This document shows, one piece after another, positions 25,300-55,458 of a stretch of 64,000 nt of DNA. The stretch spans positions 70,514 to 134,513 of the forward strand of contig JAGMDC010000003.1 of the NCBI GenBank assembly GCA_023128895.1, written 5' to 3'. The notes under the pieces are model-generated. The model was given only the letters and a program-made list of their open reading frames with translations. It was not told the DNA's origin and searched no databases. The DNA is from Candidatus Parcubacteria bacterium (GTDB taxonomy: Bacteria; Patescibacteriota; Minisyncoccia; Minisyncoccales; JAGMDC01). The translations under genes and the position numbers were made by a program. Positions within the stretch are counted from its first letter, which is position 1. Each line of letters starts with the position of its first letter.

Positions 25300-26400
25300 T
25301 TATAACCCTTCTTCGGAAAGTTGTTTGAGCAGGTCCTTTTGCTTTCTGGAAAGATGCTTTGGAATATCAACATCTAATTTTACATAAAGGTGGCCCCTGC
25401 CAAATCCGGAAAAATGCGGAATTCCTTTTCTGGAAATTCTCAATATCTTGCCTGACTGAGTAGCGCTCGGAACTTTTAATAAAATTTTAGTGCCATCCAA
25501 ATTAGAAATTTCTATCTCGCTTCCCAGAGCTGCCCGCGAAAAAGAAACTGGGACTGAAATATGCAAGTCGTCGCCTGTTCTCTTAAACACAGGATGCTTC
25601 TTGACAAAAATGCGGACATATATATTTCCTGACTCGCCTCCCCTAATTCCAGCATCGCCTTTGCCTTCAATTTTTATTACTTGATTGCTATCAACTCCTG
25701 CCGGGATAAAAATTTTAATTTTTTCTTCGCCCTGTACTCTTCCCTCGCCTTTGCAGACATTGCAGGGTTTTTCCGGTTTTGTTCCTTCGCCTTTACACTC
25801 CGGACAAATAGTATAATGCGTTATAGAGCCAAGAAATGTTCTTTTAATCTGCTGAACCTGTCCCGTTCCCCTGCAGGAAAAACACTCTTTTACAGCAGTA
25901 CCCGGCTCCGCGCCTGTCCCTTTGCATCTGGAGCAGGTATTCATTTTATAAAGTTTGATTTCGCGCGCCTGATTTTTTAACACTGCTTCCAAAGGAAGTT
26001 CTATGTCTATTTGAATATTATCCCCTCTTTTAATATCTGTTTTTCGCTCAGCCCTGCCAAACCCATGACCAAAAAACTCTCCAAATATATCTCCCATATC
26101 TCCAAATCCAAATTCCGCTCCCTGCCCGAATTTATCTCTCATCGCTTCAAAATCAAATCCGCCAGCGCCGAAACCGGGACCTCCTTGCGCGCCGCCTTCA
26201 AATACCCTGCCAAATTTGTCATATTGCTCTCTCTTGCTTTTATCAGAAAGAATTTGATAAGCTTCGTTTATCTCCTTAAATTTTTTTTCGTCGCCGCCTT
26301 TGTCTGGATGGTATTTATGGGCAAGCTTCCTATATGCTTTTTTTATATCCTGTTCTGTGGCATTCTTCGCCACCCCCAGGATTTGATAATAATCAGCCAT
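25300..26400 (-). CDS. dnaJ: chaperone DnaJ
   Basis: J-domain HPD motif, G/F region, four CxxCxGxG repeats. Confidence 0.95.
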
Positions 26401-26415
26401 AAATAAAAAAATGAT

Positions 26416-26586
26416 GAGCGAGGCAACAAGCCCTCAATGGCAAACATCGGAGGCGCCTGAGCATGGTCCGAGCCCCCACACCTAATTTAGGTGTGGGGGC
26501 TCGGTCAGGCGCTGAGATATTAGACCCCAAAATCCCGCTGGGATTTTGAGGGTCGGTGCCTTGAGGACTTCGTTGCCGAGCGAATT
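26416..26586. repeat. ~170-nt structured intergenic element, copy 1 (between dnaK and dnaJ)
   Basis: Terminal ~20-bp inverted repeats GAGCGAGGCAACAAGCCCTCAA/TTGAGGGCTTCGTTGCCgaGCG, with internal hairpins CCGAGCCCCCACACC...GGTGTGGGGGCTCGG and CAAAATCCC-GCT-GGGATTTTG. Confidence 0.85.
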
Positions 26587-26595
26587 ATTTATGAA

Positions 26596-28491
26596 TTACT
26601 TCTCCTTATATTCGCCTTCTTCCGCGGTTTTGTCGTCAGTTTGTTTGTCGTCTTTATTTTCTCCTTCCTGCGGAGGAGTTTGCTGCTGCGTTTGCTGATA
26701 CATTTGCGCCCCTACTTTCTGAATTGCTTGGGACAATTCTTCTGTCTTTTGTTTAATTTCTTCTATGCTATCGCTATCTTTTACTTTCCTTAACGCTTCT
26801 ATTTTTTCTTCTATCTCTTTTTTTGTTTCTGCTGAAACCTTGTCTCCAGCGTCTTTCAGGGTCTTTTTTGTTGTGTATATCAAACTATCCGCCAAATTTT
26901 TTGCTTCAATTGTTTCTTTCTTTTTCCTGTCTTCTTCAGCGTGCAATTCCGCGTCTTTTTTCATTTTATCCACTTCTTCGTCTGACACGCCGCAAGAACC
27001 CTCAATCCTTATTGATTGGGTTTTCCCGCTCGCTTTATCTTTCGCTGAAACATTTAAAATTCCGTTCGCGTCAATGTCAAAACTCACTTCTATTTGAGGC
27101 ACGCCGCGCGGCGCGGGCGGAATTCCGTCTAAAATAAATCTGCCCAATGTCTTATTATCCGCGGAACTCGGCCTCTCGCCCTGCAAAATATGAATTTCCA
27201 CTGAGGGCTGATTGTCAGCAGCAGTTGAAAAAACCTGCGTCTTGGAAGTTGGAATAGTTGTATTTTTTGAAATCAAAATAGTGTTAACCTGTCCCATTGT
27301 TTCAATACCCAAAGACAACGGCGTTACATCTAAAAGCAAAACATCTTTTACTTCCCCTTGTAATATGCCCGCCTGGACCGCGGCGCCCATTGCGACAACT
27401 TCGTCAGGATTAATGCCTTTATGCGGCTCTTTGCCGAATAAATTTTTAATTTCTTCCTGTATTTTCGGCATTCTTGTCTGGCCTCCTACCAACACTATCT
27501 CGTGGATATCTTTTATTTCCATACCAGCGTCCTTTAATGTTTGTTTTGTTAATTCAATTGACCTGTCAACATATTCTTTGACTAATTCTTCAAACTCCGC
27601 GCGCGTTAATTTATAAAGAAGATGCTTGGGTCCGGAACTATCAGAAGTCACAAATGGAATATTAATTTCTGTCTCTAATGTAGTGGACAATTCAACTTTG
27701 GCTTTCTCCGCCGCTTCTTTTAGCCGCTGTAAAGCCAATTGGTCTTGCGATAAATCAATTCCCTGATCTTGCTTAAATTTATCCACCAGCCATGTAATAA
27801 TTTTTTGGTCAAAATCATCTCCCCCTAAATGAGTGTCTCCGCCAGTAGATTTCACTTCCACTGTATCCTCACTCACATCCAAAACAGAAACATCAAATGT
27901 TCCTCCGCCAAAGTCATATACAATAATGTTTTTCTCTCCCTGCTTTGTTAAGCCGTAAGCCAGCGCCGCGGCAGTTGGCTCGTTAATTATTCTTTTCACT
28001 GTAAATCCAGCTACCTCGCCCGCGACTTTTGTCGCCTTTCTCTGTGAATCGTCAAAATAAGCGGGACAAGTGATAATCGCTTCTGTGATTTTTTCGCCTA
28101 ATTTCTCTTCCGCGTCTGCTTTCAATTTCTGCAAAAACATTGCTGAAATTTCCAATGGCTTGTACCATTTATCTCCCATTTTTACTTCCACTCCCCCATC
28201 AGACGCCTCTTTTAATTCATAAGGGAGAAGTTTTTTGTCCTTTTGAATTTCTAAATCAGAAAACCGGCGGCCTACCAGCCGTTTAACAGAAAAAATAGTA
28301 TTTTGGGAATTAGTTATCTGCTGTCTTTTTGCCAAAATACCTGCTAATCTCTCATTATTTTTGCCCAACGCAACAACAGAAGGCGTGGTACGCGCACCCT
28401 CTTTATTTTCAATAATTTTCGGCTCCCCTGCCTCAACAACGGCCATTGCCGAATAAGTTGTTCCTAAATCAATACCTAATATCTTTGACAT
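26596..28491 (-). CDS. dnaK: chaperone DnaK (Hsp70)
   Basis: [16 protein letters not shown] motifs. Confidence 0.95.
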
Positions 28492-28540
28492 ATTTGTGAT
28501 TAAATACCACCCCTAAACAGACAGCATAGAGATGGTTTTC

Positions 28541-28578
28541 TATACATTATATATTATACATTATACATTATACAAAAT
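28541..28578. repeat. tandem heptamer (ACATTAT/ATTATAC)x4 in the dnaK upstream region
   Basis: Seen in sequence. Confidence 0.8.
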
Positions 28579-28590
28579 AGCGCGTAAAAA

Positions 28591-30984
28591 TCAAGATTTG
28601 GTTTGTCTTAATTTTGACAAAAGAAAAATTGTCTTAATGATTGTATCTGGGTTCAAAGAAATACTCTCTATCCCTTCTTTAACTAAAAATTCCGCAAACG
28701 CCGGAAAGTCGCTCGGAGCGTTTCCGCAGATGCCGCAGTATTTTTTCTTTTTGTTGCAAAGTTTAATAACTTGCGATATCATTTCTTTCACAGCTGGATT
28801 TCTTTCGTCGCTGATATGCGCGATGCGCGCGTTATCTCTGTCCATTCCCAATATTAATTGCGTTAAATCGTTTGACCCGATAGACATTCCGTCAAAAATT
28901 TCTAAAAATTCATCTGCTAAAATAACATTAGACGGAATCTCGCACATTACAATTACTTTCAACTCATCTTTGCCTTTTTCCAAGCCAAATTTTTTCATTA
29001 AAGCGATCACGGCTCTTCCCTCTTCCGGGGTTCTGCAAAATGGAACCATTACTGTAATATTTTTCAAACCGAATTCATCACGCGTTTTCTTTATCGCCTT
29101 ACATTCCATTTCAAACGCTGGCTGAAATTCCTTGTCTAAATAACGGCAAGCGCCTCTAAATCCAAGCATTGGATTTGATTCTTCGTTTTCAAATAATTCC
29201 CCTCCAATAAGATTTTTATATTCATTAGTCTTGAAATCAGACAGACGCACAATCACTTCTTTCGGATAGAACGCAGACGCGATTATCCCCACGCCTTCCG
29301 CAAGTTTATCCACAAAATACTGCTCTTTGTCTTTATACCCAATCGTCAACTCCTCCACCTTCTTAATTATTTTTTTGAATTTCTGGCTTGGGATTTCCTT
29401 GAATTTATTCAGGGCTAATGGATGTATTCTAATCTTCTCGGCAATAATAAATTCCTCGCGCGCCAGACCAACCCCATTATTCGGCAAAAACGAATTCTTA
29501 AAAGCAATATCCGGCGTTCCGATATTAAGCATTATCTTTGTTTTAATCTTTGGAATTTTCTTCAAATTATATTTCTTAATTTCGAATGAAATTTTTCCAG
29601 AATAAATTTTCCCGTCCAGCCCCTGAGAGCAGTCAATGGTAATTTCTTGGTTATTTTTCAAAATTTTAGTGCCGCGCAAAGTTCCTACAATGCAGGGAAT
29701 TCCCAATTCTCTTGAAACAATTGCCGCGTGGCATACCTTGGAGCCTTCGTCGGTAATAACAGCGCTGGCTATTCTTATCGCAGGCACCCAGTCAGGGTCG
29801 GTCATCTTAGTTACCAAAATTTCTCCTTTCTGAAACTGAGCAATTTCAGAAACATTTGAAATAATTCTCACTCTCCCTTGCCCAATTTTATTTCCAACAG
29901 CAATCCCGCGCAAAATCGGTTTATCTTTTGATTTAATTTTATATTCTTCGTAAAATGTTTTAACTTGCGCTGCGTGAACTGTTTCAGGCCTGGATTGGAC
30001 AATAAATAAATCCCCTGTCTTTCCGTCTTTCGCCCATTCGATATCCTGCGGCAGATTATAAAGCTTTTCTATATCGCAAGCCCATTGGGCCAGCTTCAAA
30101 ATTTCATCATCAGAAAGTGAAAATTTTGTTTGGTCTTTTGGCAAAACTTTTGTTTGTTTCAACCCGCCCTTCCTATTATAAACATACTTTATATTTTTTC
30201 TGCCTAAACTGCGGGAAATTATTGGCTTATAGCCCTGCTTCAATGTCGGCTTAAACACGTAAAATTCGTCCGGGGTAATCTTTCCTTTTACAATGAGCTC
30301 CCCTACTCCATATATTGAATTTATTAAAATAACATCAGGAAATCCAGTTTCAGTATCCAGAGTGAACATTACGCCGGCAGAACCCAAATCAGACCTTACC
30401 ATTTTCTGTATACACACAGACAAAGCGATTTTCAAATGCTCAAATCCCTTTTCCTCGCGATACGCGATAGCTCTGTCAGTGAACAAAGAAGCCATGCATT
30501 TTTTAACCGAGCTTAATAATTCCCGCTCGCCAGTAATATTAAGATATGATTCATGCTGTCCAGCAAAACTAGCGCTCGGCAGGTCTTCCGCTGTTGCCGA
30601 ACTCCTAACAGCAACACTCAAATTCTTCTCATTATATTCCTGCGACAATTTTCTATAATTTTTCAAAATCGCTTTTTCCAAATCTTCTGGAAAATTTGCC
30701 GCTAAAACCAAATCCCGCGCGCTTTTCCCGGTTTCTTGCAAATTCTTAATGCTCTTGGGATTAAATTTCTTAAAAATTTCTTTTAATTCCTTGTCAATCT
30801 TATTTTCTTTCAAAAAATACCAAAACGCGTCTGCCGTAAGCGCGAACCCGTCAGGAATTTTTATTCCTTTTTTAGTTAATTGCGAAAACATCTCGCCCAA
30901 TGACGCGTTCTTGCCCCCGACCAAACCAACATCGCTCTTGCGAATCTCCTTAAACCATAAAATATATTTTTGATTTTTCATCAT
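28591..30984 (-). CDS. ppsA: phosphoenolpyruvate synthase / pyruvate, water dikinase
   Basis: PEP-utilising mobile domain CHAAIVSRELGIPCIVG; ATP-grasp N-terminal. Confidence 0.85.
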   Translation of the reverse strand: MMKNQKYILWFKEIRKSDVGLVGGKNASLGEMFSQLTKKGIKIPDGFALTADAFWYFLKENKIDKELKEIFKKFNPKSIKNLQETGKSARDLVLAANFPEDLEKAILKNYRKLSQEYNEKNLSVAVRSSATAEDLPSASFAGQHESYLNITGERELLSSVKKCMASLFTDRAIAYREEKGFEHLKIALSVCIQKMVRSDLGSAGVMFTLDTETGFPDVILINSIYGVGELIVKGKITPDEFYVFKPTLKQGYKPIISRSLGRKNIKYVYNRKGGLKQTKVLPKDQTKFSLSDDEILKLAQWACDIEKLYNLPQDIEWAKDGKTGDLFIVQSRPETVHAAQVKTFYEEYKIKSKDKPILRGIAVGNKIGQGRVRIISNVSEIAQFQKGEILVTKMTDPDWVPAIRIASAVITDEGSKVCHAAIVSRELGIPCIVGTLRGTKILKNNQEITIDCSQGLDGKIYSGKISFEIKKYNLKKIPKIKTKIMLNIGTPDIAFKNSFLPNNGVGLAREEFIIAEKIRIHPLALNKFKEIPSQKFKKIIKKVEELTIGYKDKEQYFVDKLAEGVGIIASAFYPKEVIVRLSDFKTNEYKNLIGGELFENEESNPMLGFRGACRYLDKEFQPAFEMECKAIKKTRDEFGLKNITVMVPFCRTPEEGRAVIALMKKFGLEKGKDELKVIVMCEIPSNVILADEFLEIFDGMSIGSNDLTQLILGMDRDNARIAHISDERNPAVKEMISQVIKLCNKKKKYCGICGNAPSDFPAFAEFLVKEGIESISLNPDTIIKTIFLLSKLRQTKS

Positions 30985-30987
30985 ATT

Positions 30988-31623
30988 TTAAACCGCAATA
31001 ATTTTATTTTTAATCAGAAAATCTTTTACTGTTTCAAAAATTTTCTGATGCCCAACGGAATTCGGATGCACTCCGTCTTCTAATAATTTTTTATAATCCA
31101 ATTTGAGCCAATCCTCAAAAATTTCAATAAAATGAACATTATTTTTCTTGCAAACTTGCTTTATTATTTGGTCGTATTTTTGAATGTATTCATTTTTGTA
31201 TGACTCATCCGAGTTCCAAGGGATTGGATTGACTTTTACTTCTTCAACAGGAGTCAGCCCAGCAAAAATAATCTTTGAAGAAAATTTTTGGACAATATTT
31301 GTCAACTTTTGAATATTATTTTCAAAATTTTTTATTGAAACTCTCGAACTATTTTTACTATAAATAAATTCGGAATCATTTAAACCAGTTTGAATTATTA
31401 TTACATTACTTTCTTTATACTTTTGCTCTATCCTCACCTTACATTCATTTTCAATCCGTTTCAGCAATTGTGTTGAAATATCACCAGGATTCCCTAAATT
31501 AAAAACTTCATTAAATTTTCCAGTTGTCTTAAACCAAATCTTGAATCTATTTACCCAACCGCCATATTTAATATCATCCGCTCCCCAAACTATACTATCT
31601 CCAAAAACTAAAATTCTTGCCAT
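30988..31623 (-). CDS. SGNH/GDSL hydrolase
   Basis: N-terminal GDSIVWG. Confidence 0.7.
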   Translation of the reverse strand: MARILVFGDSIVWGADDIKYGGWVNRFKIWFKTTGKFNEVFNLGNPGDISTQLLKRIENECKVRIEQKYKESNVIIIQTGLNDSEFIYSKNSSRVSIKNFENNIQKLTNIVQKFSSKIIFAGLTPVEEVKVNPIPWNSDESYKNEYIQKYDQIIKQVCKKNNVHFIEIFEDWLKLDYKKLLEDGVHPNSVGHQKIFETVKDFLIKNKIIAV

Positions 31624-31635
31624 GAAATTAATTTA

Positions 31636-32085
31636 TTAAAAAAGTTTTAATGTTAATGTCGTTACTATAACGCCGGCGATCAAAACGCCTAAAAATATCA
31701 ATGGCAGTGCTTTCTTAAATGGAATCCTGAAAATAAAAGCGCAGATAGAGCCTGTCCACGCGCCGGTAAAAGGCAAAGGAATTGCCACTAAAATAACTAA
31801 CGCCAATTCCTTCCAAACTTCAAATTTTTTCTGATGATTTTTTCTGTTTCTATCAAACAGCCATACAAAAAAGCGATTAAATCTATACCACCGATGGCTT
31901 AAATATTCAGAAGCGGGACCTAACAGCAAAAGCAGAAACACTACTGGAACCATATTGCCCAAAACAGAAAACACAAAAGCAGTTTTAACAGGCAGATGAT
32001 AAACCTCTAAGGCAACAGGAATAGACGCGCGCAACTCCCCTATTGGCGTCATCGCGATAAAAAATGTTTGAAGTTCAGCAATCAT
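31636..32085 (-). CDS. small multidrug-export-like membrane protein (COG2426-like)
   Basis: 4 TM helices; TPIGELRASIP motif. Confidence 0.5.
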   Translation of the reverse strand: MIAELQTFFIAMTPIGELRASIPVALEVYHLPVKTAFVFSVLGNMVPVVFLLLLLGPASEYLSHRWYRFNRFFVWLFDRNRKNHQKKFEVWKELALVILVAIPLPFTGAWTGSICAFIFRIPFKKALPLIFLGVLIAGVIVTTLTLKLF

Positions 32086-33122
32086 TGTTTTCTCAAGTAC
32101 TCTGCCGCTTTTTCCGGCTCAATAGTTGAAATCTCTATGCCAGTGCAAAGTTCAAACCCAGCCCAGGTAGATGTTTTTGGCAGAATAGACAAATGCCAGT
32201 GATAAAAATCGTAATTTTTCCCGTCGCACGGCGCTGTATGAATAAAAAAATTATACGACGGATTATTCAACCCTTTATAAAGTTTATGCATTGCCATTTG
32301 CAACACTTCCGCAAGAGCCCATTTCTGTTTCTCGCTGATTCTCTCAAAATAAGCAGAATGCTGTTTGGGCGAAATCACGATTTCAAACGCCATTCTTGAC
32401 GCAAAAGGACATAAAGCTACAAAATATTTATTCTCAAACACAATTCTTTTCTTATTTTTAATATCCCATTTGTTCATTAAGCAGTGAACGCATTTTTTAC
32501 TATCCTTAAAAAATTTTTTGGAGCAGTTTAGCCCTGACTGGATGTCTGGATCCATAATAGGAATAGCGATAATCTGGGAATGCGGATGCGCTATGGAAGC
32601 GCCAGCTTCCGGACCATGATTGTGAAAAATAGAAACATAATTAACGAATTTTTCTTTCATCAAATCAAGATATCTGTCTTGATAAACATCAATTACTTCT
32701 TTAATTTGCGTTTGGGAAAATTGCGCTATCTGCTTTCTATGGTCTTTTGTTATTATTACTTCATGAAAACCCGCGGCGTTCATCAAATGATAAGGGCCTT
32801 CTGTTCTTTTATTTATTTTTTCATTATAAATAAACGCCGGATATTTATTCGGCACTGACACTACAGACCATCGTTTAGGAATCCCGCCTTTTGCGGTTAT
32901 ATCAACCTTCTTGCCGTCATAAAAAACCATCAAAGGTTTCTCCTGTTTGGAAAGATGGCAAAACACGCAATCTCGCGGAGAAACATGCTCTATAATTTTC
33001 TTGTCCTTTTTAAATGTTTCAGGCCTTCGCGCGCGGCCAGTGGCAATGACCACCCAATCTCCGCTTACTAAATCAAAACGAAGTTCTGACGGAAATTTTG
33101 CTTTTTTACTTTTATTTATCAT
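32082..33122 (-). CDS. galT: galactose-1-phosphate uridylyltransferase
   Basis: HIT-like HPHSQIIAIP; zinc ligands CVFC..H. Confidence 0.85.
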   Translation of the reverse strand: MINKSKKAKFPSELRFDLVSGDWVVIATGRARRPETFKKDKKIIEHVSPRDCVFCHLSKQEKPLMVFYDGKKVDITAKGGIPKRWSVVSVPNKYPAFIYNEKINKRTEGPYHLMNAAGFHEVIITKDHRKQIAQFSQTQIKEVIDVYQDRYLDLMKEKFVNYVSIFHNHGPEAGASIAHPHSQIIAIPIMDPDIQSGLNCSKKFFKDSKKCVHCLMNKWDIKNKKRIVFENKYFVALCPFASRMAFEIVISPKQHSAYFERISEKQKWALAEVLQMAMHKLYKGLNNPSYNFFIHTAPCDGKNYDFYHWHLSILPKTSTWAGFELCTGIEISTIEPEKAAEYLRKQ

Positions 33123-33852
33123 CGTACTTTTTCAACACCAAATTTTTTCTAATGTGGAAAACATCTATCAGCATTTTTACCATATTTTTGAAACCCACTG
33201 TGCTTGTAGTGTCGTTTATCCATCTCACTGGTACTTCTTTTATCTCATAACCCATTTTTTTTGCCAAGACCAAAATTTCAACATCAAAAGCAAAACGGTC
33301 AATTTTACACTTTGGAAAAATATCCTCTACCGACTTTGCGGTGAATCCCTTAAACCCGCATTGAGTATCCCAAATTCCCCTTAACCCTGAAACAATTTGG
33401 ACAATTAAATTAAAAATATTGCCAAGTATTATTCTCCACCAGGGCTGAGACACGGCAATATCCGCGCCTTTTATATCCCGCGAGCCAATCACGACTTCGC
33501 GTCCCTTGTCAAATTCAGGCCACATCTTTTCTATGTGGTTTATAGTTGTAGAATTATCAGCGTCCATAAACACGCAAAATTCTCCTTTTGCTTCCAACAT
33601 TCCCTGCCGCGTCACAAAACCTTTCCCGCGATTTTTTTTATTATCAATCAAACGCAAATTTTTAATTTCCGGTAAAACCTGGCTCACTTCCTCTGCTGTC
33701 TTGTCCGGCGAACCGTCATTAACAACAATAATTTCATAAGTATATTTTTGGCTCCTCAAATACTCATCAATTTTTTTTAAGGTATCTCCAATACGACCCG
33801 CTTCTTTATAAGCCGGAATTATAACTGACAAATGAATTTTTTTATTATCCAT
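33112..33852 (-). CDS. family 2 glycosyltransferase (dolichyl-phosphate sugar transferase-like)
   Basis: LSVIIPAYKE ... VVNDGSPD, DAD motif. Confidence 0.85.
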   Translation of the reverse strand: MDNKKIHLSVIIPAYKEAGRIGDTLKKIDEYLRSQKYTYEIIVVNDGSPDKTAEEVSQVLPEIKNLRLIDNKKNRGKGFVTRQGMLEAKGEFCVFMDADNSTTINHIEKMWPEFDKGREVVIGSRDIKGADIAVSQPWWRIILGNIFNLIVQIVSGLRGIWDTQCGFKGFTAKSVEDIFPKCKIDRFAFDVEILVLAKKMGYEIKEVPVRWINDTTSTVGFKNMVKMLIDVFHIRKNLVLKKYDDK

Positions 33853-33883
33853 AATAATTTTTTTATTATTTATCTATTGTACC

Positions 33884-33919
33884 AAAAAAATATAAAAAAA
33901 AGTAGGGTGATAAAACCCT
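33884..33919 (-). terminator. rho-independent terminator (AGGGT-GATAAA-ACCCT + U-run)
   Basis: Seen directly after the stop of the 33921..34490 gene. Confidence 0.65.
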
Positions 33920-33920
33920 T

Positions 33921-34490
33921 TTAATCAATTATATTTTTTACTTGTTCTAAAATCTCTCGCAACTCATTCAATGTGCTGCCATTATGGAACGCTCTAATCT
34001 GCCGTATTACTGAAAAATAACTGGGTATTGCTTGTTCCAATAAACCTGTGCGCAAAAATCTGTCTATTGAACCAGTCTGCATAGTAATATCAGCGTAAAC
34101 ATAGCTAATTCTCTCTTGAATATCCGCAATTTGGCGTACTATATTGTTTCCTTGGAAAGCCGATTCTAATTTATTCAAATGCATTATTATCTTTTGCAGC
34201 CAATCAATGTATCCCTCTAAAATACTTGTGTCTATGTGTAAAACATCTTTATCGCTGACTTTTGTGAAAAAATATTGATTAAACGTTTCAATCTGTTCAA
34301 TCATTTTTTCTAAAAAAACAACAAGTCCTTGCGCGTAATATCCTTCATCAATCATTTTTTTCACAAAAATATTGAATGGCATCAAATCTAAATCTGCTTC
34401 TGTAATTTTTCTAAATCCTGAAATCGATTTTTCTGTTTTTGCCTTTTTATGTACGCCAAAACTTTCAAAAATCTTTTTCATTTCTCCCAT
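33921..34490 (-). CDS. hypothetical protein
   Basis: ORF. Confidence 0.5.
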   Translation of the reverse strand: MGEMKKIFESFGVHKKAKTEKSISGFRKITEADLDLMPFNIFVKKMIDEGYYAQGLVVFLEKMIEQIETFNQYFFTKVSDKDVLHIDTSILEGYIDWLQKIIMHLNKLESAFQGNNIVRQIADIQERISYVYADITMQTGSIDRFLRTGLLEQAIPSYFSVIRQIRAFHNGSTLNELREILEQVKNIID

Positions 34491-34630
34491 AATTATCCCC
34501 TCCTATTTTATGATTTATTGAATGTACTATCTCAAACTTAACAAACTATCTTGAATTTGTAAAGAAAAAATTCAAAAAATAAGTAAAAAAATTCGGGGAA
34601 AGAATTAATTCAAGCCCCATGATTGCGATT

Positions 34631-35026
34631 TTACCAATCGATTACCTCTATGAAGGGATTTTCCGCGCGCATGATCCGAGTCCAAATGTCTATGACTCTC
34701 CGAGGATGGACAGTTTTCCACTCTCCTTTCAAAATAACTCCTATCACACTAACCCTTCTCCCTGGAGTTAAATCTCCAAAATATATATTATTCCAAAGAT
34801 TATAGCTTTCTCCCTCTACTGCCAGATAGTAAGGGCCCAACCTTATCGCTTCACTGAGACACATTCCTTCGCGAGGCATTATTTGGATAATCAATCCTCC
34901 TGCTTTTTCCAATACTTCCATGCAAGAAAGTATTTCTTCTATCATTTGTTCTGTTGTTATCTCTATCTTTTTCTTCCCTTTTATCTCTTTTCCCACCTTT
35001 TTCACTTCTTCCAATATTTTTCCCAT
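34631..35026 (-). CDS. hypothetical small protein, unit 3 of the tandem array (paralogue of 35571..35960)
   Basis: Shares the N-terminal pattern MGxxLxxxxEV..K..KKxT.EAMIEEIxxCM with the 129-aa paralogue; C-terminus divergent. Confidence 0.6.
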   Translation of the reverse strand: MGKILEEVKKVGKEIKGKKKIEITTEQMIEEILSCMEVLEKAGGLIIQIMPREGMCLSEAIRLGPYYLAVEGESYNLWNNIYFGDLTPGRRVSVIGVILKGEWKTVHPRRVIDIWTRIMRAENPFIEVIDW

Positions 35027-35171
35027 ATTTATCTATCACATCCTAATTTGTGCTAAATTTAGTATTACTTATCGTCTTATTTCTGTCAAGACTTTGGTGT
35101 CATGAGTTTGAAAAAATAAGTAAAAAAATTCGGGGAAAAAATTGATTCAATCCCCATGTTCACTATATGTG
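35027..35171 (-). repeat. repeat unit: terminator-like hairpin + remnant of the map 3' end (carrying TTGACA) + RBS region
   Basis: Near-identical to 35427-35570 and partially to 34578-34630 and 35961-36040. Confidence 0.8.
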
Positions 35172-35426
35172 TTAATCCCAAAACTTTTTTGTTGCCCTTA
35201 TTCCGAACTCTGGTTTGCCTTCTCTTGTGACTATGATAAATTCAAACTTATCTTCTCGTTTGACTAAAATCGAATTTATGGCTTGCATCATTTCTTCTTC
35301 ACTAAATGATGTAAATTGTTGCGCGCTTAAATTCTTTTTTATCTCCTCACAAGTGACAACCCCTTTGGAATACACTATTATTTTCATTACGGCTCTTCTA
35401 AGGCCAACATTTTTTGGTTCTGCCAT
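35172..35426 (-). CDS. hypothetical small protein, unit 2 of the tandem array
   Basis: ORF preceded by the same duplicated promoter/RBS module. Confidence 0.55.
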   Translation of the reverse strand: MAEPKNVGLRRAVMKIIVYSKGVVTCEEIKKNLSAQQFTSFSEEEMMQAINSILVKREDKFEFIIVTREGKPEFGIRATKKFWD

Positions 35427-35570
35427 ATTACACCCCTTAATTTATGCTAAATTTAACATAAACTAATCCTTGATTTCTGTCAAGACTTTGGTGTCATGAG
35501 TTTGAAAAAATAAGTAAAAAAATTCGGGGAAAGAATTAATTCAAGCCCCATGATTGCGCCGCCACAAAAA
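35427..35570 (-). repeat. repeat unit (as 35027-35171)
   Basis: Contains CATGACACCAAAGTCTTGACAGAAATCAAGGATTAG, copied from the map C-terminus (..HGPKVLTEIKD*). Confidence 0.8.
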
Positions 35571-35960
35571 TCATCTCACTATTTTTACACTAAAATTCTC
35601 GGAAAGAATTATGTCTTCCCAAATTTTTCTCGCTTGGGCAAGCACTGGGGTCCCTTTCTCCCATAATCGATCCAACCCGCCAGCAAATATTTCATATAAC
35701 TGTTGTTCTAAGGTATCTGAAGTTTGAACTAACAAGTTGCTCCACCCAGCATGAGGTATAGACAAATAATTCCCTGCTATTCTTATCTTTCGTTTCGAAT
35801 CCATCGAATCAACTATCGCAATCTCTAACACTTTTCCAATTTCCGCTGCTTTAGCCATACACTTCATGATTTCTTCTATCATCGCTTCAGATGTCAATTT
35901 TTTTCTCGATTTTTTTTCTTTTTCCACGACTTCATTAATTTTATCTAACACATTTCCCAT
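35571..35960 (-). CDS. hypothetical small protein, unit 1 of the tandem array
   Basis: ORF immediately downstream of map. Confidence 0.6.
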   Translation of the reverse strand: MGNVLDKINEVVEKEKKSRKKLTSEAMIEEIMKCMAKAAEIGKVLEIAIVDSMDSKRKIRIAGNYLSIPHAGWSNLLVQTSDTLEQQLYEIFAGGLDRLWEKGTPVLAQARKIWEDIILSENFSVKIVR

Positions 35961-35998
35961 TTTTTATCACCCCTAATTAGTGCTAAATATAGCATAAA

Positions 35999-36751
35999 CT
36001 AATCCTTAATTTCTGTCAAGACTTTGGGACCATGAGCAGTAATTGCGATAGTGTGCTCAAAGTGCGCGCAGACAGACCCGTCAATTGTTTGAAAAGCATG
36101 CCCGTCTGGACCTCTTCTAATTTTCCAATCCCCTGTAGTGAGCATTGGCTCAATGCAAAAAACCATTCCCGGTTTAATAACCGCGCCAGCGCGGCGCTTG
36201 CCGTAATTCAAAACTTCTGGCTCTTCGTGAAGTTCTTTGCCAATCCCATGCCCGCATAGTTCGCGCACAACTCCGAATCCTTGGTCTTCAGCGTGGCGCT
36301 GGATAGTGTTCCCAATATCTCCAAAAGTGTTTCCTGGACGCGATTTCTTAATTCCCCTCTTCAGCGCTTTCTTTGTCGCCCTTATTAAACGCAAAATTTC
36401 CGGAACAACTTCTCCAACTGGAACAGTTATTGCCATATCAGAAAGATATCCTTTATATTTCAAACCTAAATCTAAGGTTATAATATCTCCCTGCTTTAAC
36501 TTATAATCACACGGAACTTCGTGGACGATTGACTGATTTACTGACGAACACAATGCCGCTGGATACCCGCCATAACCCTTGAATGCCGGTTCTGTGTTAT
36601 ATTTAAAAATAAGGTCCTCTGCGGCCTTATCTAATTGTTTGGTAGTAATCCCCACATCAACCATCTGCTCCAATTGTTTCACAATTTTTGCCAAAATTTT
36701 ACCCGCTTCCGCCATTATTGCGATTTCCTGTTTGGTTTTTATAGAAATCAT
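35999..36751 (-). CDS. map: methionine aminopeptidase type I
   Basis: Pita-bread fold metal ligands (D..D..H..E..E). Confidence 0.9.
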   Translation of the reverse strand: MISIKTKQEIAIMAEAGKILAKIVKQLEQMVDVGITTKQLDKAAEDLIFKYNTEPAFKGYGGYPAALCSSVNQSIVHEVPCDYKLKQGDIITLDLGLKYKGYLSDMAITVPVGEVVPEILRLIRATKKALKRGIKKSRPGNTFGDIGNTIQRHAEDQGFGVVRELCGHGIGKELHEEPEVLNYGKRRAGAVIKPGMVFCIEPMLTTGDWKIRRGPDGHAFQTIDGSVCAHFEHTIAITAHGPKVLTEIKD

Positions 36752-37407
36752 TTAATTTTCTCAAGGATTTCTTTGAAGACATCGTCAATCGGCTGTTCGC
36801 CGTTAATTTTAATAAGCCGATTTTGTTGTTTATAATACTCAACTACTTCTACAACTGTATTATCATAATAATCAAGACGATTATTTATGGCTTCAACGCT
36901 ATCATCGCGCCGAGTAATTAACTCTCCCCCGCATTTATCGCAAACTTTCAATTTCTTAAATTCGCCCACCCATGGAATTAATCGCCCACACTCCTTGCAA
37001 ATCCTTCTTTTGGTCAAACGGCCAATCGCTTCTTCTCTGGAAATATCAATTAATAAATTAAAAGTATTTTCTTTGCGTTCCAAAAATTCTAAAAATCTAT
37101 CTAATGCTTGCGCCTCGCTAACTCTGCGAGGAGCGCCATCAAGAATAAATCCCTGATCTTCTTTAAGATTATAAGCAAAACTATGCATCCATAAAGTTGC
37201 TGCCAAATCATCTAATGGGAATCCGCCCTCTCTCACAATTTTTTTAACTCTCGCGCCCGTGTCTGTGTCAGCTTTTAATAAATCTCTAAATAAATCACCA
37301 GTGGAAATATAACAAAAATCGCCAAATTCTTTCATTAAAAGTTTCGCTTGTGTCCCTTTGCCTGAACCAGACCTTCCTATTAAAGTAAAATTTATTGGTT
37401 TGTCCAT
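36748..37407 (-). CDS. adk: adenylate kinase with zinc-ribbon LID
   Basis: P-loop GRSGSGKGTQ; CKECG...CDKCG; start set at MDKPINF because the track's upstream extension lies inside repeat copy 2. Confidence 0.85.
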   Translation of the reverse strand: MDKPINFTLIGRSGSGKGTQAKLLMKEFGDFCYISTGDLFRDLLKADTDTGARVKKIVREGGFPLDDLAATLWMHSFAYNLKEDQGFILDGAPRRVSEAQALDRFLEFLERKENTFNLLIDISREEAIGRLTKRRICKECGRLIPWVGEFKKLKVCDKCGGELITRRDDSVEAINNRLDYYDNTVVEVVEYYKQQNRLIKINGEQPIDDVFKEILEKIK

Positions 37408-37417
37408 AATGATAAAT

Positions 37418-37589
37418 GAGCAAGGCAACAAGTCCTCAATGGCAAACATCGGAGGCGCCTGAGCATGGTCCGAGCCCCTACACCTAAATTAGGTGTGGGG
37501 GCTCGGTCAGGCGCTGAGATATTAGACCCCAAAACCCACCTTAGGGGTTTGAGGGTCGGTGCCTTGAGGGCTTCGTTGCCTTGCGAATT
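37418..37589. repeat. ~170-nt structured intergenic element, copy 2 (between secY and adk)
   Basis: Same architecture as 26416-26586 with compensatory substitutions in stems. Confidence 0.85.
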
Positions 37590-37599
37590 TAATTAAACG

Positions 37600-38877
37600 T
37601 TAAAATGTTTCGTAGTCCCTCATTTGCAATTGCGCGTTAATCTGCTTCATTGTTTCCAGCACAACTGACACAATAATCAAGAGAGCTGTTCCTCCCAACA
37701 AGAACTGAAACACCATCACGCCGGTAATTCCGCCTATAATAGACGGCATTATCGCGATAGTTCCCAAAAATAAAGCCCCAAAAAGCAAAATCCTGTTCAG
37801 AATATAATACAAAAAATTAGCAGTTGACTCTCCCGGCCTTATTCCAGGCACAAAGCCCCCCATTTTCTGCAAATTTGTTGCTATCGCCTTAGGGTCAAAA
37901 GTTACAGCAGTGTAAAAATAAGTGAACAGCACAACTAAAATAAAATACAAAGTCGCGTAGACCCAGGGATTTTGAAATAAATCCCCTACTGTTTGCGCGA
38001 CACTTCCAACTATGCCGCCCGCGCCTGCCAAAAAACTGGCGATCATTCCCGGGAAAAGCATTAGAGACAAAGCGAAAATAATAGGGATTACGCCTGCCGG
38101 ATTAATATTTAATGGCAAATAAGTTGAGACCCCGCCATACATTTTCTGCCCCCGCACTCTTTTTGCGTAAGAAACAGGGATATTCCGGCGCGCTTCGTTC
38201 ACAACAACCACGCCGGCAATTATAAGAATAGCCATTATGAAAAAAGCAATGTATGTAGGAATTGCGGAAGGATCCCAAGTGATAAACATCTGGCGAATAT
38301 TATTTGGAAAATCAGCAATAATTCCAGCGAAAATCAAAAGCGAAACTCCATTGCCAATTCCTTTTTCGGTAATCAGTTCTCCCAGCCACATTAAAAACAC
38401 GGCTCCAGCGACCACAGTTAAAATTGAACTGGCCATTAAAGCGGGTGAAAGAGAGCCGATAAGCCCCTGTCTTTGAAATAAAGTTAACATAGCAAATCCC
38501 TGCAATGTAGCCAAAGGCACAGTGAGCACTCTTCCATATTGATTAAATTTTTGCCTGCCTGCTTCCCCTTCCTCTTTATACATTTTTTCAAACGCGGGAA
38601 AAATCATGGTCAAAAGTTGTAAAATAATCACTGCTGTAATATACGGCCCCAATCCAAGCATCACAATGGAAAGATTGTCCAACGCCCCGCCGGTAAACAT
38701 ATTCATAAGCCCGAACATCTGATTTCTCTCAAAAAACTCTCTTAAATTTTCTATATCAATTCCGGGGATAGGAATATTCGCGCACAGCCGAAAAACAAAA
38801 AAAATAAATAAAACAAACAACATTTTATTGCGCAAATCGTGAATTTTCAATATTTGTATAAGTTTATCTAAAATCAT
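37600..38877 (-). CDS. secY: preprotein translocase SecY
   Basis: 10-TM SecY pattern. Confidence 0.95.
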   Translation of the reverse strand: MILDKLIQILKIHDLRNKMLFVLFIFFVFRLCANIPIPGIDIENLREFFERNQMFGLMNMFTGGALDNLSIVMLGLGPYITAVIILQLLTMIFPAFEKMYKEEGEAGRQKFNQYGRVLTVPLATLQGFAMLTLFQRQGLIGSLSPALMASSILTVVAGAVFLMWLGELITEKGIGNGVSLLIFAGIIADFPNNIRQMFITWDPSAIPTYIAFFIMAILIIAGVVVVNEARRNIPVSYAKRVRGQKMYGGVSTYLPLNINPAGVIPIIFALSLMLFPGMIASFLAGAGGIVGSVAQTVGDLFQNPWVYATLYFILVVLFTYFYTAVTFDPKAIATNLQKMGGFVPGIRPGESTANFLYYILNRILLFGALFLGTIAIMPSIIGGITGVMVFQFLLGGTALLIIVSVVLETMKQINAQLQMRDYETF

Positions 38878-39311
38878 TTTAATTCTTTGATTTTTCCGCC
38901 AATTTTTTCTATCTTTTCTTTCGCTGTTTTAGATATTTTGCAATCTTCAATAATCAATGCTTTGGTTATCTGCCCCTTTCCTAAAATTTTAACTCGCGGA
39001 ATTCTTTTTTCTATTTTACGAATTATTCCTTTTTTAAGCAAGGCTGCTGGATTTACTTTTTCTTTATCCTGGAAATATTTTTCAAAAAAAGCAAAATTTA
39101 TTTCCAAAAAATTCTTTGGTTTGGGATTAAATTTATAACCCCTTAATTTTGGGTATCTCTTAAGCAACCCGCGGACCATTGGTTCTTTATTGCTGCCAGA
39201 TCTTGATTTCTGTCCTTTTAATCCGCGTCCAGCATAAGTGCCGCGCTTCCCTCCGCGGGCAACGCGCTTTCTTGTTTTTGTTTTATGATTTGGTTTAAGT
39301 TCATTCAACAT
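38874..39311 (-). CDS. rplO: 50S ribosomal protein L15
   Basis: uL15 sequence pattern; follows rpsE directly (no rpmD). Confidence 0.9.
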   Translation of the reverse strand: MLNELKPNHKTKTRKRVARGGKRGTYAGRGLKGQKSRSGSNKEPMVRGLLKRYPKLRGYKFNPKPKNFLEINFAFFEKYFQDKEKVNPAALLKKGIIRKIEKRIPRVKILGKGQITKALIIEDCKISKTAKEKIEKIGGKIKELK

Positions 39312-39317
39312 AAATTA

Positions 39318-39851
39318 TTACTTTTTAGTTTTTTTATCAACATCGCTACGCTCGCCTGCATCGCTATGCGAAGCATTGCGGGCAGGTGTGTTTCCTAACA
39401 TCTCTAACGCTGCAATAGTTGCTTTTGCGTTGTTTAATTTATTTCTGGTCTTCCCGAGTACCTTTGAAGATATATTTTTAATTCCAGCCAAAGAACAAAT
39501 TACCCTGACTGTGCCGCCTGCGACTAATCCTCTGCCTTCTTTTTGCGGCTTAAGCAGGACTTTTGCGGCTCCAAATTTGGAAATCACTTCATAAGGAATA
39601 GTGCCTTGTGAAATAGGAACTTTGATTAAATTCTTTTTTGCCAACCTGGTTGCTTTTTCTATGCCCTGCGCTACATCAGAACCCTTGGCCACTCCAACTC
39701 CAACTCTCCCTTTTTTATCGCCAACAACCATTACAGCGCGAAACCGAAGACGGCGGCCGCCAGCAGTCACCCGTGTTACTCTTGCCAAATCCAAAAGTTT
39801 AGAATCGAACTCGTCTTTTGGCTTATTTTTACGAAATCTTTGATTAAACAT
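39318..39851 (-). CDS. rpsE: 30S ribosomal protein S5
   Basis: uS5 pattern; start set at MFNQRF (the track extends to 39890). Confidence 0.9.
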   Translation of the reverse strand: MFNQRFRKNKPKDEFDSKLLDLARVTRVTAGGRRLRFRAVMVVGDKKGRVGVGVAKGSDVAQGIEKATRLAKKNLIKVPISQGTIPYEVISKFGAAKVLLKPQKEGRGLVAGGTVRVICSLAGIKNISSKVLGKTRNKLNNAKATIAALEMLGNTPARNASHSDAGERSDVDKKTKK

Positions 39852-39877
39852 AATAAAATAATAAATGATTTTTACTC

Positions 39878-39905
39878 TTGACAAAACCAATCAATGTGCT
39901 ATAAC
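39878..39905 (+). promoter_or_regulatory. sigma70-like promoter TTGACA-16-TATAAC
   Basis: Seen in sequence 20 nt upstream of the SD AAGGAGGT. Confidence 0.6.
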
Positions 39906-39924
39906 CTTATCAAGGAGGTTAAAA

Positions 39925-40164
39925 ATGGAAATAGGAACTACTTTTATTTTTGTGATAGCGCTATGTATAATAAGTTTGTGCCATTTGATTTTTTCTTTCG
40001 GCATAAATTTTACCATGGGAAATATGGTTAAAATCGCTGAATCTAATGGTACCAAACTTGAATCTGCTATCAAAAAAATAAAATATGTTAACAGATTAAG
40101 CAATACGATAGCACTCTGTGTCGCCATGTTAGCGCTGGGGATACTAATAGCACAATCCATTTAA
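39925..40164 (+). CDS. small (79 aa) two-TM membrane protein encoded antisense within the rplR-rpsE gap
   Basis: Strong SD AAGGAGGT 5 nt before the ATG; two hydrophobic helices; weak terminator after the stop. Confidence 0.55.
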   Translation: MEIGTTFIFVIALCIISLCHLIFSFGINFTMGNMVKIAESNGTKLESAIKKIKYVNRLSNTIALCVAMLALGILIAQSI

Positions 40165-40211
40165 ATGTTTGCAGGCGGACAAATTCACCTGTATTTTTTT
40201 TATTCAATTTT

Positions 40212-40613
40212 TTAAAATTTCAATCCTGCTTCGCGGGCTCCCTCTGCCAGGGCTTTCACTCTTCCGTGATATTTATATCCGCCTCTGTCAAAAACAATTT
40301 TTTTAATTTTCTTTTCCAGCGCTCTCTCGGCAACCAACTTCCCTACTGCGTATGCCAGCGCTGTTTTGCCTGCCTGCTCGGTAGGCAGGCCTGCCTGCTC
40401 GGTAGGCAGGGCCTTGCGGTCTCCAGCGTCTGGTTTTTTAATTTCTTTTTCCTGCGCCTCAACAATTGTATTCCCTTTTTCGTCATCAATAAGCTGCGCG
40501 TAAATATGCTGATGCGACCGAAAAACGCAAAGACGCGGAATTTTAATAGTTCCAGACACTTTTGCTCTCACCCGTTTATGCCGCCTAATTTTCTTTTCTT
40601 GTTTCTTTAACAT
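40212..40613 (-). CDS. rplR: 50S ribosomal protein L18 carrying an in-frame 14-aa insertion (LPTEQAG x2)
   Basis: uL18 C-terminal pattern; insertion encoded by the tandem palindromic 21-mers. Confidence 0.9.
40369..40410. repeat. tandem duplication of the palindromic 21-mer CCTGCCTGCTCGGTAGGCAGG inside the rplR coding sequence
   Basis: Seen in sequence; the same 21-mer occurs between genes at 41795 and, as a variant, at 50128. Confidence 0.85.
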
Positions 40614-40636
40614 ATTTTAACTTAAAAATAAATAAT

Positions 40637-40803
40637 GAGCGAGGCAACAAGCCCTCAATGGCAAACATCGGAAGCGCCTGAGCATGGTCTCCGAGCCACG
40701 CCTACTGGCGGGGCGAGGAGTCAGGCACTGAGATATTAGACCCCAAAATTCCGCTGGGAATTTTGAGGGTCGGTGCCTTGAGGGCTTCGTTGCCTTGCGA
40801 ATT
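40637..40803. repeat. ~170-nt structured intergenic element, copy 3 (between rplF and rplR)
   Basis: Outer helix and hairpin A conserved; hairpin B replaced by a different GC-rich hairpin. Confidence 0.85.
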
Positions 40804-40821
40804 GTTATAAACTACAAAACC

Positions 40822-46574: not shown

Positions 46575-46600
46575 AATTATGAGTGAGGGAGGAATACAAA

Positions 46601-46628
46601 AACTTGTTTTTGTATTCCAACCGAGCGA
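46601..46628. repeat. 12-13-bp stem hairpin GGAATACAAAAAC-TTG-TTTTTGTATTCC between rplB and rplW
   Basis: Seen in sequence. Confidence 0.7.
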
Positions 46629-46657
46629 GTAATTATGCGGCTTTGCCGCAATAAAAT

Positions 46658-54416: not shown

Positions 54417-54591
54417 TTTTGTAAAAAAAATTGCCCAAAATAGGATGCATTTTTCTGCTCGCTCCTGCCCGCAACGCTTCGCGTAGCGATGCAGGCGGGC
54501 GGAAAAGTAAATAAACTCGCTTCGCTCGCTTATTTTCTTTTCGCTCACTTCTCAAAAAAATGAGGACGCAGCGCGCCCCATAAATTATGTA
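54417..54591. repeat. ~170-bp conserved 3' tail of cassette copy 1, with a GC-rich palindromic core (54464-54502)
   Basis: Near-identical to 55853-56020 (1 indel). Confidence 0.9.
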
Positions 54592-54593
54592 TA

Positions 54594-55457: not shown

Positions 55458-55458
55458 T

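Follow-up and report, generated by a model that had tools for sequence, protein, structure and literature searches.

What are the three closely similar, strongly structured segments that separate dnaK from dnaJ, secY from adk, and rplF from rplR in a 64,000-nucleotide stretch of a Candidatus Parcubacteria bacterium genome (GenBank assembly GCA_023128895.1, contig JAGMDC010000003.1, positions 70,514 to 134,513 of the forward strand; this whole stretch is termed the window in the following)? A first interpretation made from the letters alone (the sequence-only reading) had proposed a three-copy family of multi-helix elements, serving either as conserved RNA or cruciform structures that might act in translation, processing or attenuation, the option towards which it inclined, or as a miniature transposable element with inverted repeats (MITE). 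The comparison of the window with related genomes indicates that the elements (c1, c2 and c3) probably represent one small mobile DNA repeat, an interspersed imperfect palindrome that is non-coding and non-autonomous and belongs to the ERIC/Correia/MITE kind. The repeat is specific to a genus-level group of Parcubacteria (Patescibacteria) and constitutes a new family, undescribed in Rfam, but of a known kind. The element is dispensable and is not a dedicated gene-control RNA.

Three copies of one structured element

The family is real. Conserved cores of 169-174 nt, each extending from AATTCGC to GCTCAT, are located in the dnaK-dnaJ (c1), secY-adk (c2) and rplF-rplR (c3) spacers, all in gene sense, i.e. 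on the minus strand of the window. The cores are 90-94% identical in pairwise comparison when one variable hairpin (P5, see below) is left out. The 64 kb contain core words of 16 and 19 nt exactly three times, a count that was matched in 0 of 100 shuffles, so that a chance origin of the three copies is excluded; the copies obtained nhmmer E-values of 1e-59 to 1e-64, and a repeat finder independently recovered the same three places. The positions proposed in the sequence-only reading were thus borne out, as were the gene neighbours that it had named, by Pfam assignments on the called genes (Table 1).

The GC content of the cores is 55-56%, compared with 37.7% for the window. The unit that is gained or lost comprises 190-204 nt, i.e. 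the GC-rich core plus 8-18 nt of AT-rich sequence on each side, and the distance from the end of the core to the downstream ATG is 13 nt (c1), 8 nt (c2) or 21 nt (c3). No coding capacity is evident; the longest internal open reading frames (ORFs) comprise 23-34 codons, and the differences between copies are non-synonymous. The k-mer assemblies of sister samples break within the element, which is a multi-copy signature.

For each copy, a Y-shaped three-way junction is predicted for either strand (-92 to -112 kcal/mol), consisting of a helix P1 (22 bp), a hairpin P2 (14 bp), and a long arm with the helices P3, P4 and P5. The arms of P1, GGCAAC(G)AAGYCCTCAA(N)GGCA, represent terminal inverted repeats of 20-28 bp, counting a weak AT-rich extension. 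The element is thus small (MITEs stay below about 500 bp), non-coding and bounded by inverted repeats, as are MITEs.

Filled and empty junctions in a sister strain

The gene for methionine aminopeptidase (MAP; 35999-36751) was chosen as an anchor because all three sites are located within 10 kb of it, and contigs encoding an identical protein were retrieved; the same genes were also found on ENA, Logan, JGI and NCBI metagenome contigs. NCBI lists the identical MAP under 'Candidatus Parcubacteria bacterium', and the host is a Parcubacteria/Minisyncoccales-like Patescibacterium. One contig of JGI metagenome 3300040951 (termed L058) is 99.2-99.4% identical to the window over 20 kb, and two of its three junctions are empty: dnaK and dnaJ are separated by a spacer of 5 nt (AAGTAA-TATTT-ATG), and rplF and rplR, in the spc ribosomal-protein operon, by a spacer of 4 nt (GAGTAA-AAAT-ATG). 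Relative to L058, the window carries an additional 190 nt at the first and 204 nt at the second of these junctions (Table 1), with each boundary ambiguous by 1 nt; at c1, for example, BLAST joins window positions 26595 and 26405 at a single base of L058. The secY-adk copy alone is retained in L058, and it is damaged there: the 3' arm of P5 has lost 11 nt, which breaks this hairpin, and P2 has lost 1 nt.

The element hence occupies stop-to-ATG spacers of 4-5 nt in tightly packed operons, and both datable insertions (c1 and c3) are immediately preceded, in gene sense, by AGTAA, which reads TTACT on the opposite strand. Insertion into compact junctions is favoured because deletions that took out 190 of 195 nt and 204 of 208 nt of two spacers and left compact junctions are much less likely.

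Polarity and decay in more distant relatives

In a relative used as outgroup (L018, 84% identity in MAP), rplF and rplR are separated by a 14-nt spacer and secY is followed by an unrelated 33-nt spacer; in another (L081, 72% identity in MAP), secY and adk overlap. Since the element is missing from these junctions in both, we read the empty junction as the ancestral state and the elements as insertions. At dnaK-dnaJ, synteny is not conserved in the relatives reached, and the outgroup comparison thus covers the other two junctions.

Further copies or remnants are found in three relatives with 80-85% identity in MAP (L064, L065 and L066). The relative L066 (80% identity) carries a copy between secY and a CYTH gene. 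In L065, a copy is located upstream of adk and is adjoined on its 5' side by a Mur ligase gene whose reading frame continues into the element for 20 codons, which indicates a rearrangement at the element boundary. In L064, just AATTCGC joined directly to TCGCTTA is left, i.e. the two outermost ends with the interior deleted, as a footprint of a former copy.

This distribution does not agree with a dedicated regulatory element of dnaJ, adk or rplR: the element is missing before dnaJ and rplR in L058, where the remaining copy has lost half of P5, and before rplR in L018; only a footprint of it is left in L064, and it is not found after secY in L018 and L081. That closely related strains do without the element does not agree with a gene-specific leader or attenuator, either. 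Conversely, the dispersed copies with presence or absence in close relatives (two of the three absent in L058, and others present in two further species) are as known for MITEs.

The P5 hairpin occurs in three types that are mutually unrelated but each near-perfectly self-complementary: c1 and c2 carry type A, type B is shared by c3 and L066, and L065 has type C. The statement that in the third copy this hairpin is swapped for an unrelated self-complementary sequence was thus correct, and the type-B hairpin of c3 (CUCCUCGCCCCGCCAGUAGGCGUGGCUCGGAG) is identical to P5 of the copy in L066, i.e. in another species. The variant of P4, in contrast, follows the host species (CC/GG versus UU/AA), while the P5 type crosses species. 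For this reason the copies behave as a family that is homogenised within genomes and subject to either exchange or selection, and not as neutral relics; the combination of species-specific cores with shared P5 types is a mosaic like that of mobile repeat families.

The window and the retrieved related loci were scanned with an nhmmer profile and a covariance model (R1), the latter covering about 320 kb. No copies past c1-c3 and their counterparts in the sister-sample contigs, L058, L065 and L066 were detected; none was found in the locus of a relative with 71% identity in MAP, and none within 10 kb past either window end, which gives a density of three copies in 84 kb (the window plus 10 kb past each end).

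A shorter element is located between rplW and rplB (46575-46657, minus strand). It is an 80-nt two-hairpin unit whose ends (AATTaCTCGCTCGG...CCTCaCTCAT) resemble the family ends; it is present once in the window and as a tandem pair in L058 (495-656), and a relationship to the main element is only suggestive.

Predicted fold

The predicted fold of c1 has a free energy of -108 kcal/mol in gene sense (z -12.7) and of -111.8 kcal/mol in antisense (z -12.2), and that of c3 of -94 kcal/mol; the antisense (plus) strand folds slightly better in five of six copies. In c1, P3 consists of 6 bp (AAUAUC/GAUGUU), P4 of 8 bp (GCGCCUGA/UCAGGCGC), and P5 of a 17-bp perfect palindrome (26468-26504). A seven-nt bulge in the long arm, ACCAUGC, is invariant across copies and species.

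Two details of the sequence-only reading required correction. The idealised right arm that it quoted (...GTTGCCTCGC, plus strand) exists in no copy, the actual sequence being ...GCCGAGC in c1 and ...GCCTTGC in c2 and c3. As a consequence, the example of a compensatory change from GCGAGG/CCTCGC to GCAAGG/CCTTGC is really a 2x2 internal loop in c1, as it is in the relatives L065 and L066; full pairing is seen in c2 alone, and in c3 half of it is paired. Its second example, a change in P2 from AAUCCC/GGGAUU to AAUUCC/GGAAUU, was confirmed.

Covariation and conservation

Covariation was tested with six sequences (five of them independent) and 49 consensus pairs. Standard pairs account for 98.3% of the cells, and in four pairs both partners have changed; two of these pairs belong to P4 and two to the P2 apex. 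In P4, the compensated change is from C-G to U-A, twice (GCGCCUGA/UCAGGCGC to GCGUUUGA/UCAAACGC). The covariation score of 0.084 exceeds those of 497 of 500 shuffles. The claim of structure-preserving change therefore stands in view of the compensated pairs, the high proportion of paired cells and the three P5 hairpins; it does not extend to a dedicated regulatory role for dnaJ, adk and rplR.

Several uncompensated changes are found in P1, which weighs against host selection on the fold. Changes on a single side that result in G-U pairs occur three to four times in the sense strand and three times in the antisense strand, without strand bias; there is no sign of strand-specific RNA selection, as both strands fold equally well and wobble changes are balanced. 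Arm-to-arm correction of palindromes at the DNA level can mimic compensatory change.

The core is 87-91% identical between the window's species and L065/L066, and the MAP genes in this comparison are 76-80% identical overall, with 45-62% identity at four-fold sites across the pairs. Between L065 and L066 the core is 97% identical, and the MAP genes of the same pair are 82% identical overall and 54% identical at four-fold sites.

Searches against known families and for a partner enzyme

Rfam 15 gave no match at the gathering threshold in the three regions when the whole window was scanned. At E<=10, c1 obtained only generic hairpin matches to miRNA models (30 bits, with cut-offs of 77-95). The Rfam comparison that the sequence-only reading had suggested hence did not assign the element to any known family. 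Composite peptides from all six frames of the element, used to detect spurious gene calls over copies, had no match among 5.8 billion proteins; a small ORF on the plus strand was ruled out as a gene in view of the non-synonymous differences between copies and the lack of homologues.

At the DNA level, a two-block pattern gave 0 matches in 185,579 GTDB species genomes, and a pattern of both inverted-repeat arms gave 31 GTDB matches, all in unrelated GC-rich taxa and none similar by nhmmer, i.e. chance matches. A scan of JGI metagenomes gave 11 matches, all by chance. Among four scans of viral contigs, three gave 0 matches and one gave four matches inside phage coding sequence, none of them related; BLASTN searches against plasmid and phage collections gave no match. 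In about 250 kb of retrieved loci, no cognate insertion sequence that shares the inverted repeats was detected. A full-text search of the literature on repeats in Patescibacteria, or the Candidate Phyla Radiation (CPR), found no description of MITE-like or comparable repeats.

Consensus scans gave no support to an intrinsic terminator or promoter borne by the element. P1 is not called by the terminator scan, and a gap of 6-7 nt separates the helix from the start of the U-tract; the number of promoter-like matches is hardly higher than expected from shuffled sequence (62 versus 44). The sequence-only reading had remarked on the absence of a Shine-Dalgarno sequence between the element and the start codon; this is true but not special, since a Shine-Dalgarno-like motif is found 7-18 nt upstream of the start in only 7 of the 48 window genes, with A/U-rich leaders in the others. 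An explanation of the element by Shine-Dalgarno logic was rejected because of this genome-wide absence.

Comparison with known repeat families

The element resembles the ERIC elements (IRU) of Enterobacteriaceae, which are imperfect palindromes of 127 bp, in being non-coding, 100-200 nt in size, and located in transcribed intergenic regions and within operons. Further likenesses are a copy number and location that vary by strain and species together with a well conserved sequence, and size variants that arise via internal insertion or deletion; a part of these ERIC features is reportedly that described by Hulton (1991) and by Wilson and Sharp (2006). In contrast to ERIC, which forms a single hairpin, the element folds as a three-way junction whose terminal hairpin can be exchanged; the two share no sequence similarity, the host is a Patescibacterium, the element shows no TA duplication, and it has been seen in one orientation so far. 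ERIC elements are located in transcribed intergenic regions (PMC2649163, PMC10969869), and the ERIC transcript folds to a long hairpin that is able to alter the fate of the mRNA (PMC10969869).

Correia elements (CREE/NEMIS) of Neisseria are similar in size (about 100-155 bp), in their 26-bp terminal inverted repeats, and in their presence or absence between close strains. They are mobilised between strains and co-transcribed with their neighbours, and their inverted-repeat helix is cut by RNase III (PMC2649163, PMC10969869); for the present element, the likeness in RNase III cleavage consists of a predicted substrate helix only (22-28 bp in operon spacers). Correia elements differ by a duplication of TA, the presence of an IHF site and the ability to create promoters; no such feature is evident here.

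REP and REPIN sequences, which depend on RAYT enzymes (Y1 HUH), are likewise GC-rich intergenic palindromes without target-site duplications; their hairpins form in single strands, and they are homogenised within a genome (PMC3116915, PMC3733652). REPs are shorter (20-40 nt; REPINs about 100 nt) and consist of a simple hairpin or doublet with a GTAG or CGTC tag, as described for REP elements (PMC3733652). The present element, in contrast, is branched, neither tag can be read in its sequence, and there is no RAYT gene in the sequence examined. Among the features that define the PATEs of IS200/IS605 and the REPINs, the missing target-site duplication and the AGTAA adjoining both datable insertions are consistent with the element; its outer ends are not conserved, it carries no tag, and no Y1 gene was found in the sequence examined.

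Integron attC sites act as folded single strands. They, too, are imperfect palindromes located just after stop codons in one orientation, with structure more conserved than sequence. An attC site was rejected for the present element, as the R''/R' boxes (RYYYAAC/GTTRRRY) are absent and no cassette boundary is found; its arms read GGCAAC and GTTGCCT, the latter not matching the R' box, the neighbours are core housekeeping genes and not cassettes, and the insertion brings the element but no gene.

Proposed mode of spread and effect on the operons

A non-autonomous repeat of this kind would depend on an enzyme that acts in trans and whose gene is located at another place in the genome. The terminal inverted repeat of 20-28 bp would suggest a DDE transposase, and the lack of target-site duplications, the uniform orientation and the dense hairpins would fit a hairpin-dependent HUH enzyme acting on single strands (IS200/IS605-like or REP-RAYT-like) equally well. 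The conservation of sequence and pairing would then come from selection on the element's own propagation, from exchange or gene conversion between copies, and from arm-to-arm correction of the palindromes, and not from a regulatory role in the host.

Within the operons the element is presumably co-transcribed as a passenger, which is likely because the copies are located between tightly linked genes and carry no convincing promoter or terminator. The very stable Y fold in the mRNA may draw the upstream stop codon near to the AU-rich leader and ATG downstream, and this proximity probably explains how insertions are tolerated in essential operons of a genome with mostly Shine-Dalgarno-less genes. 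A perfect helix of 22-28 bp in mRNA would be a natural substrate for RNase III, with P1 as the predicted target. Repeats of the ERIC/Correia type in mRNA lead to RNase III cleavage or expose RNase E sites (PMC2649163, PMC10969869), and by analogy with the Correia elements of Neisseria, the most likely side effect would be cleavage or uncoupling of the polycistronic mRNA.

The genomes of Patescibacteria (CPR) are very small and tightly packed, yet host active selfish repeats, and such repeats break assemblies and can pass for regulatory RNAs. The pair of filled and empty junctions represents a natural test of the influence of a stable RNA fold on translational coupling and on the processing of operon mRNAs where, as in this organism, Shine-Dalgarno sequences are mostly missing. 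If the conservation across species reflects a fold-dependent mobility, the family would be a new type of structured mobile element.

Evidence against a simple mobile repeat, and alternative explanations

A number of observations weigh against the interpretation as a simple mobile repeat. A comparison of filled and empty junctions yielded no clean target-site duplication, with 0-1 nt at c1 and either 1 nt or an imperfect 5-nt repeat (AGTAA/AGTTA) at c3; for the target sites, whose inspection had been suggested by the sequence-only reading, there is thus no consistent duplication and none of the fixed length known for MITEs. The MITE alternative of that reading is hence favoured in so far as it implies a mobile repeat, but is left without this duplication. 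The outermost 8-18 nt of the inserted segments differ between copies, and the ends of the mobile unit are therefore undefined. No transposase domain (Pfam) was found among the genes called in the approximately 250 kb of retrieved loci. The divergence next to c3 is 2.8% over 213 nt, compared with an average of 0.7%, for which reason recombination, and not a recent transposition, may have brought in the filled rplR allele; the same 213-nt stretch also carries two other strain-specific insertions. In view of differences of 6-9% among their cores, none of c1, c2 and c3 served as donor for another, and only five independent copies from three species were seen. Finally, the four fully compensated pairs exceed the expectation from about 10 random hits on 51 pairs, and the interior of the element is as conserved as its inverted repeats. 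Simple MITEs require only their ends, and the conserved interior therefore points to a constraint on the whole fold.

Such a constraint is expected if the whole Y fold is the substrate for mobility, i.e. if the repeat is a structure-dependent non-autonomous element and not a classical inverted-repeat MITE with target-site duplications; we consider this unlikely but credible. It might be a single-stranded DNA hairpin element that an HUH/Y1 enzyme mobilises (similar to the PATEs of IS200/IS605 or to REPIN/RAYT), or a mini-element that carries a guide or bridge-type RNA for a recombinase encoded elsewhere. The missing duplication at both reconstructable junctions would be explained, as would the single orientation and strand of all copies and the position of both datable insertions directly 3' of AGTAA, although this motif may just mirror the stop codons, with only 4-5 nt open to harmless insertion. 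Across species, the ACCAUGC bulge and the interior junctions do not vary, in contrast to the apices of the helices, which covary or are exchanged; the conservation of the cores is far above that of neutral sites, and both strands fold. However, no HUH, RAYT or IS110 gene was found at any retrieved locus, the inserted segments lack the conserved ends known from IS200/IS605, neither GTAG nor CGTC tags are present, and Rfam gave no match to HEARO or any other family.

With low confidence, the reading may be extended to the entire branched fold, as RNA or single-stranded DNA, being the functional unit, either as HUH or recombinase substrate or as a guide- or bridge-like RNA with P5 as an exchangeable specificity hairpin, which would home to the stop-start junctions of highly expressed operons. 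Under this reading, the near-invariance of the fold across Parcubacteria species would result from selection on it. This would jointly explain the missing duplications, the single orientation, a core conservation above that of the neighbouring essential genes, and the swapping of P5.

A cis-acting RNA module of benefit to the host, which would influence mRNA processing or stability, terminate transcription in part, or insulate translation, and which host selection would keep at secY-adk and recruit elsewhere, is improbable. A secY-adk or secY-CYTH copy does occur in three species whose four-fold sites are 45-62% identical, with cores 87-89% identical to c2, and the compensatory changes in P4 and P2, a P5 that is always a hairpin, the invariable gene sense and a U-rich tract after P1 in c1 and c3 are as expected for such a module. 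Two of three copies are nevertheless absent in a 99.3%-identical strain with compact, working junctions, the copy shared with that strain is damaged there, L064 retains a footprint, and L018 and L081 lack the element; furthermore, the wobble pairs show no strand bias, the U-tract begins 6-7 nt past a helix that the terminator scan does not call, and arm-to-arm conversion in palindromes can imitate the covariation.

Spread without any dedicated enzyme, through illegitimate or homologous recombination and gene conversion among strains and loci, with palindromes arising from template switching, is quite improbable: the insertion of the same 170-nt core with sharp ends at three unrelated junctions is difficult to achieve without a specific mechanism, and the conservation across species implies selection or directed spread. 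Variable flanks of the inserted segments, a microhomology of just 1 nt at the junctions, the raised divergence and further strain-specific indels beside c3, the near-perfect palindromes of the P5 variants, and a deletion footprint that ends at short repeats would be in agreement with it.

An independent small RNA gene on the plus strand, antisense to the operons, is very improbable, as the promoter-like hexamers just left of c1 and c3 on that strand are located within host coding sequence and not in the element, promoter-like matches number 62 against 44 in shuffled sequence, the element is dispensable between strains and has no Rfam match; the slightly better fold of the plus strand in five of six copies is left in its favour.

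Gene neighbours and feature positions

The positions of the copies, the helices of c1 and the neighbouring genes are summarized in Table 1. The gene call for adk places its start at the position given there; the mechanical ORF extends further upstream to an ATG at 37449, within the c2 element.

Table 1. Positions of the three elements, of the helices predicted for c1, and of the adjoining genes (window coordinates)
Feature	Position	Strand	Basis or remark
c1, conserved core (AATTCGC...GCTCAT), 173 nt	26414-26586	-	alignments A1-A3; covariance model score 188 bits
c1, full 190-nt segment without counterpart in L058, dnaK stop to dnaJ ATG	26406-26595	-	BLAST; boundary ambiguous by 1 nt
c1, P1 5' arm (GC..GGCAACGAAGUCCUCAAGGCA), pairs with 26418-26442	26557-26581	-	minimum free energy (MFE) fold
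c1, P1 3' arm (UGCCAUUGAGGGCUUGUUGCC..GC)	26418-26442	-	MFE fold
c1, P2 hairpin, 14 bp; apex pairs covary among copies	26523-26554	-	MFE fold
c1, long arm: P3, P4, bulge ACCAUGC, P5	26443-26521	-	MFE fold
c2, core, 174 nt, secY-adk	37416-37589	-	only copy common to window and L058
secY-adk spacer, entire: 10 nt AT-rich (CGTTTAATTA) + core + 8 nt (TTATCATT)	37408-37599	-	sequence and gene calls
c3, conserved core, 169 nt, type-B P5 hairpin (CUCCUCGCCCCGCCAGUAGGCGUGGCUCGGAG)	40635-40803	-	
c3, full 204-nt segment without counterpart in L058, rplF stop to rplR ATG	40618-40821	-	flanked by imperfect AGTAA/AGTTA repeat
dnaK, upstream of c1	26596-28491	-	PF00012 HSP70
dnaJ, downstream of c1	25300-26400	-	PF00226/PF01556/PF00684
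secY, upstream of c2	37600-38877	-	PF00344
adk, downstream of c2	36748-37407	-	PF00406; start at 37407 by gene call
rplF (L6), upstream of c3	40822-41364	-	PF00347
rplR (L18), downstream of c3	40212-40613	-	PF00861

Other repeats and features in the window and related loci

The rplR gene contains a 42-nt in-frame insertion (about 40372-40413, minus strand) that consists of two tandem 21-nt palindromic units (CTGCCTACCGAGCAGGCAGGC). The encoded L18 comprises 133 aa in place of 119; the insertion is absent from L058 and the relatives, and resembles an RPE-like intragenic palindrome. Between rplR and rpsE (39863-40211), about 340 nt are absent from L058, where a 7-nt-scale spacer is found. This segment holds a 99-aa ORF on the opposite strand (39865-40164) without similarity to a 99-aa ORF between fusA and tuf, and the first codons of rpsE differ between the strains.

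Insertions of 170-200 nt are found in L066 in the rpsH-rplF, rplF-rplR and rplR-rpsE spacers (523-695, 1239-1438 and 1799-1979), two of which share GTTTTGAGTTTGAGCGAGCCCGAGCGAGCGACTGAAAGGAGCGAGCAAGGGCGAAGC directly before the ATG; these belong to a different palindromic repeat family at the same type of site. In L018, a 150-nt element with 16-bp terminal inverted repeats (TGTTGCCTAATAAACC / GGTTTATTAAGCAACA) is located between galT and the next gene (11031-11183), and is absent from the otherwise syntenic L019, where both genes overlap.

A 120-190-nt intergenic unit occurs three times at 34571-36036 of the window (families D7, D8 and D10), upstream of small genes (129, 84 and 131 aa) without Pfam domains, and each of these repeats carries TTGACA-type promoter-like hexamers. 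A 79-nt tandem repeat is located in a 720-nt spacer (58367-58519), for which two assemblies of the same organism (L020 and L022) differ by 144 nt. A 1.43-kb tandem duplication (54418-57208) contains two genes of 287 aa (54594-55457 and 56024-56887) that are 74-99% identical by segment; a contig of an NCBI metagenome-assembled genome ends inside this duplication. Furthermore, one group I intron is predicted at 11039-11248 (minus strand; Rfam RF00028, 78 bits), near genes for tRNA-Asp (9969-10046) and tRNA-Met (10203-10276) and with a 240-aa ORF (10289-11011) just downstream; ARAGORN calls no interrupted tRNA at this place.

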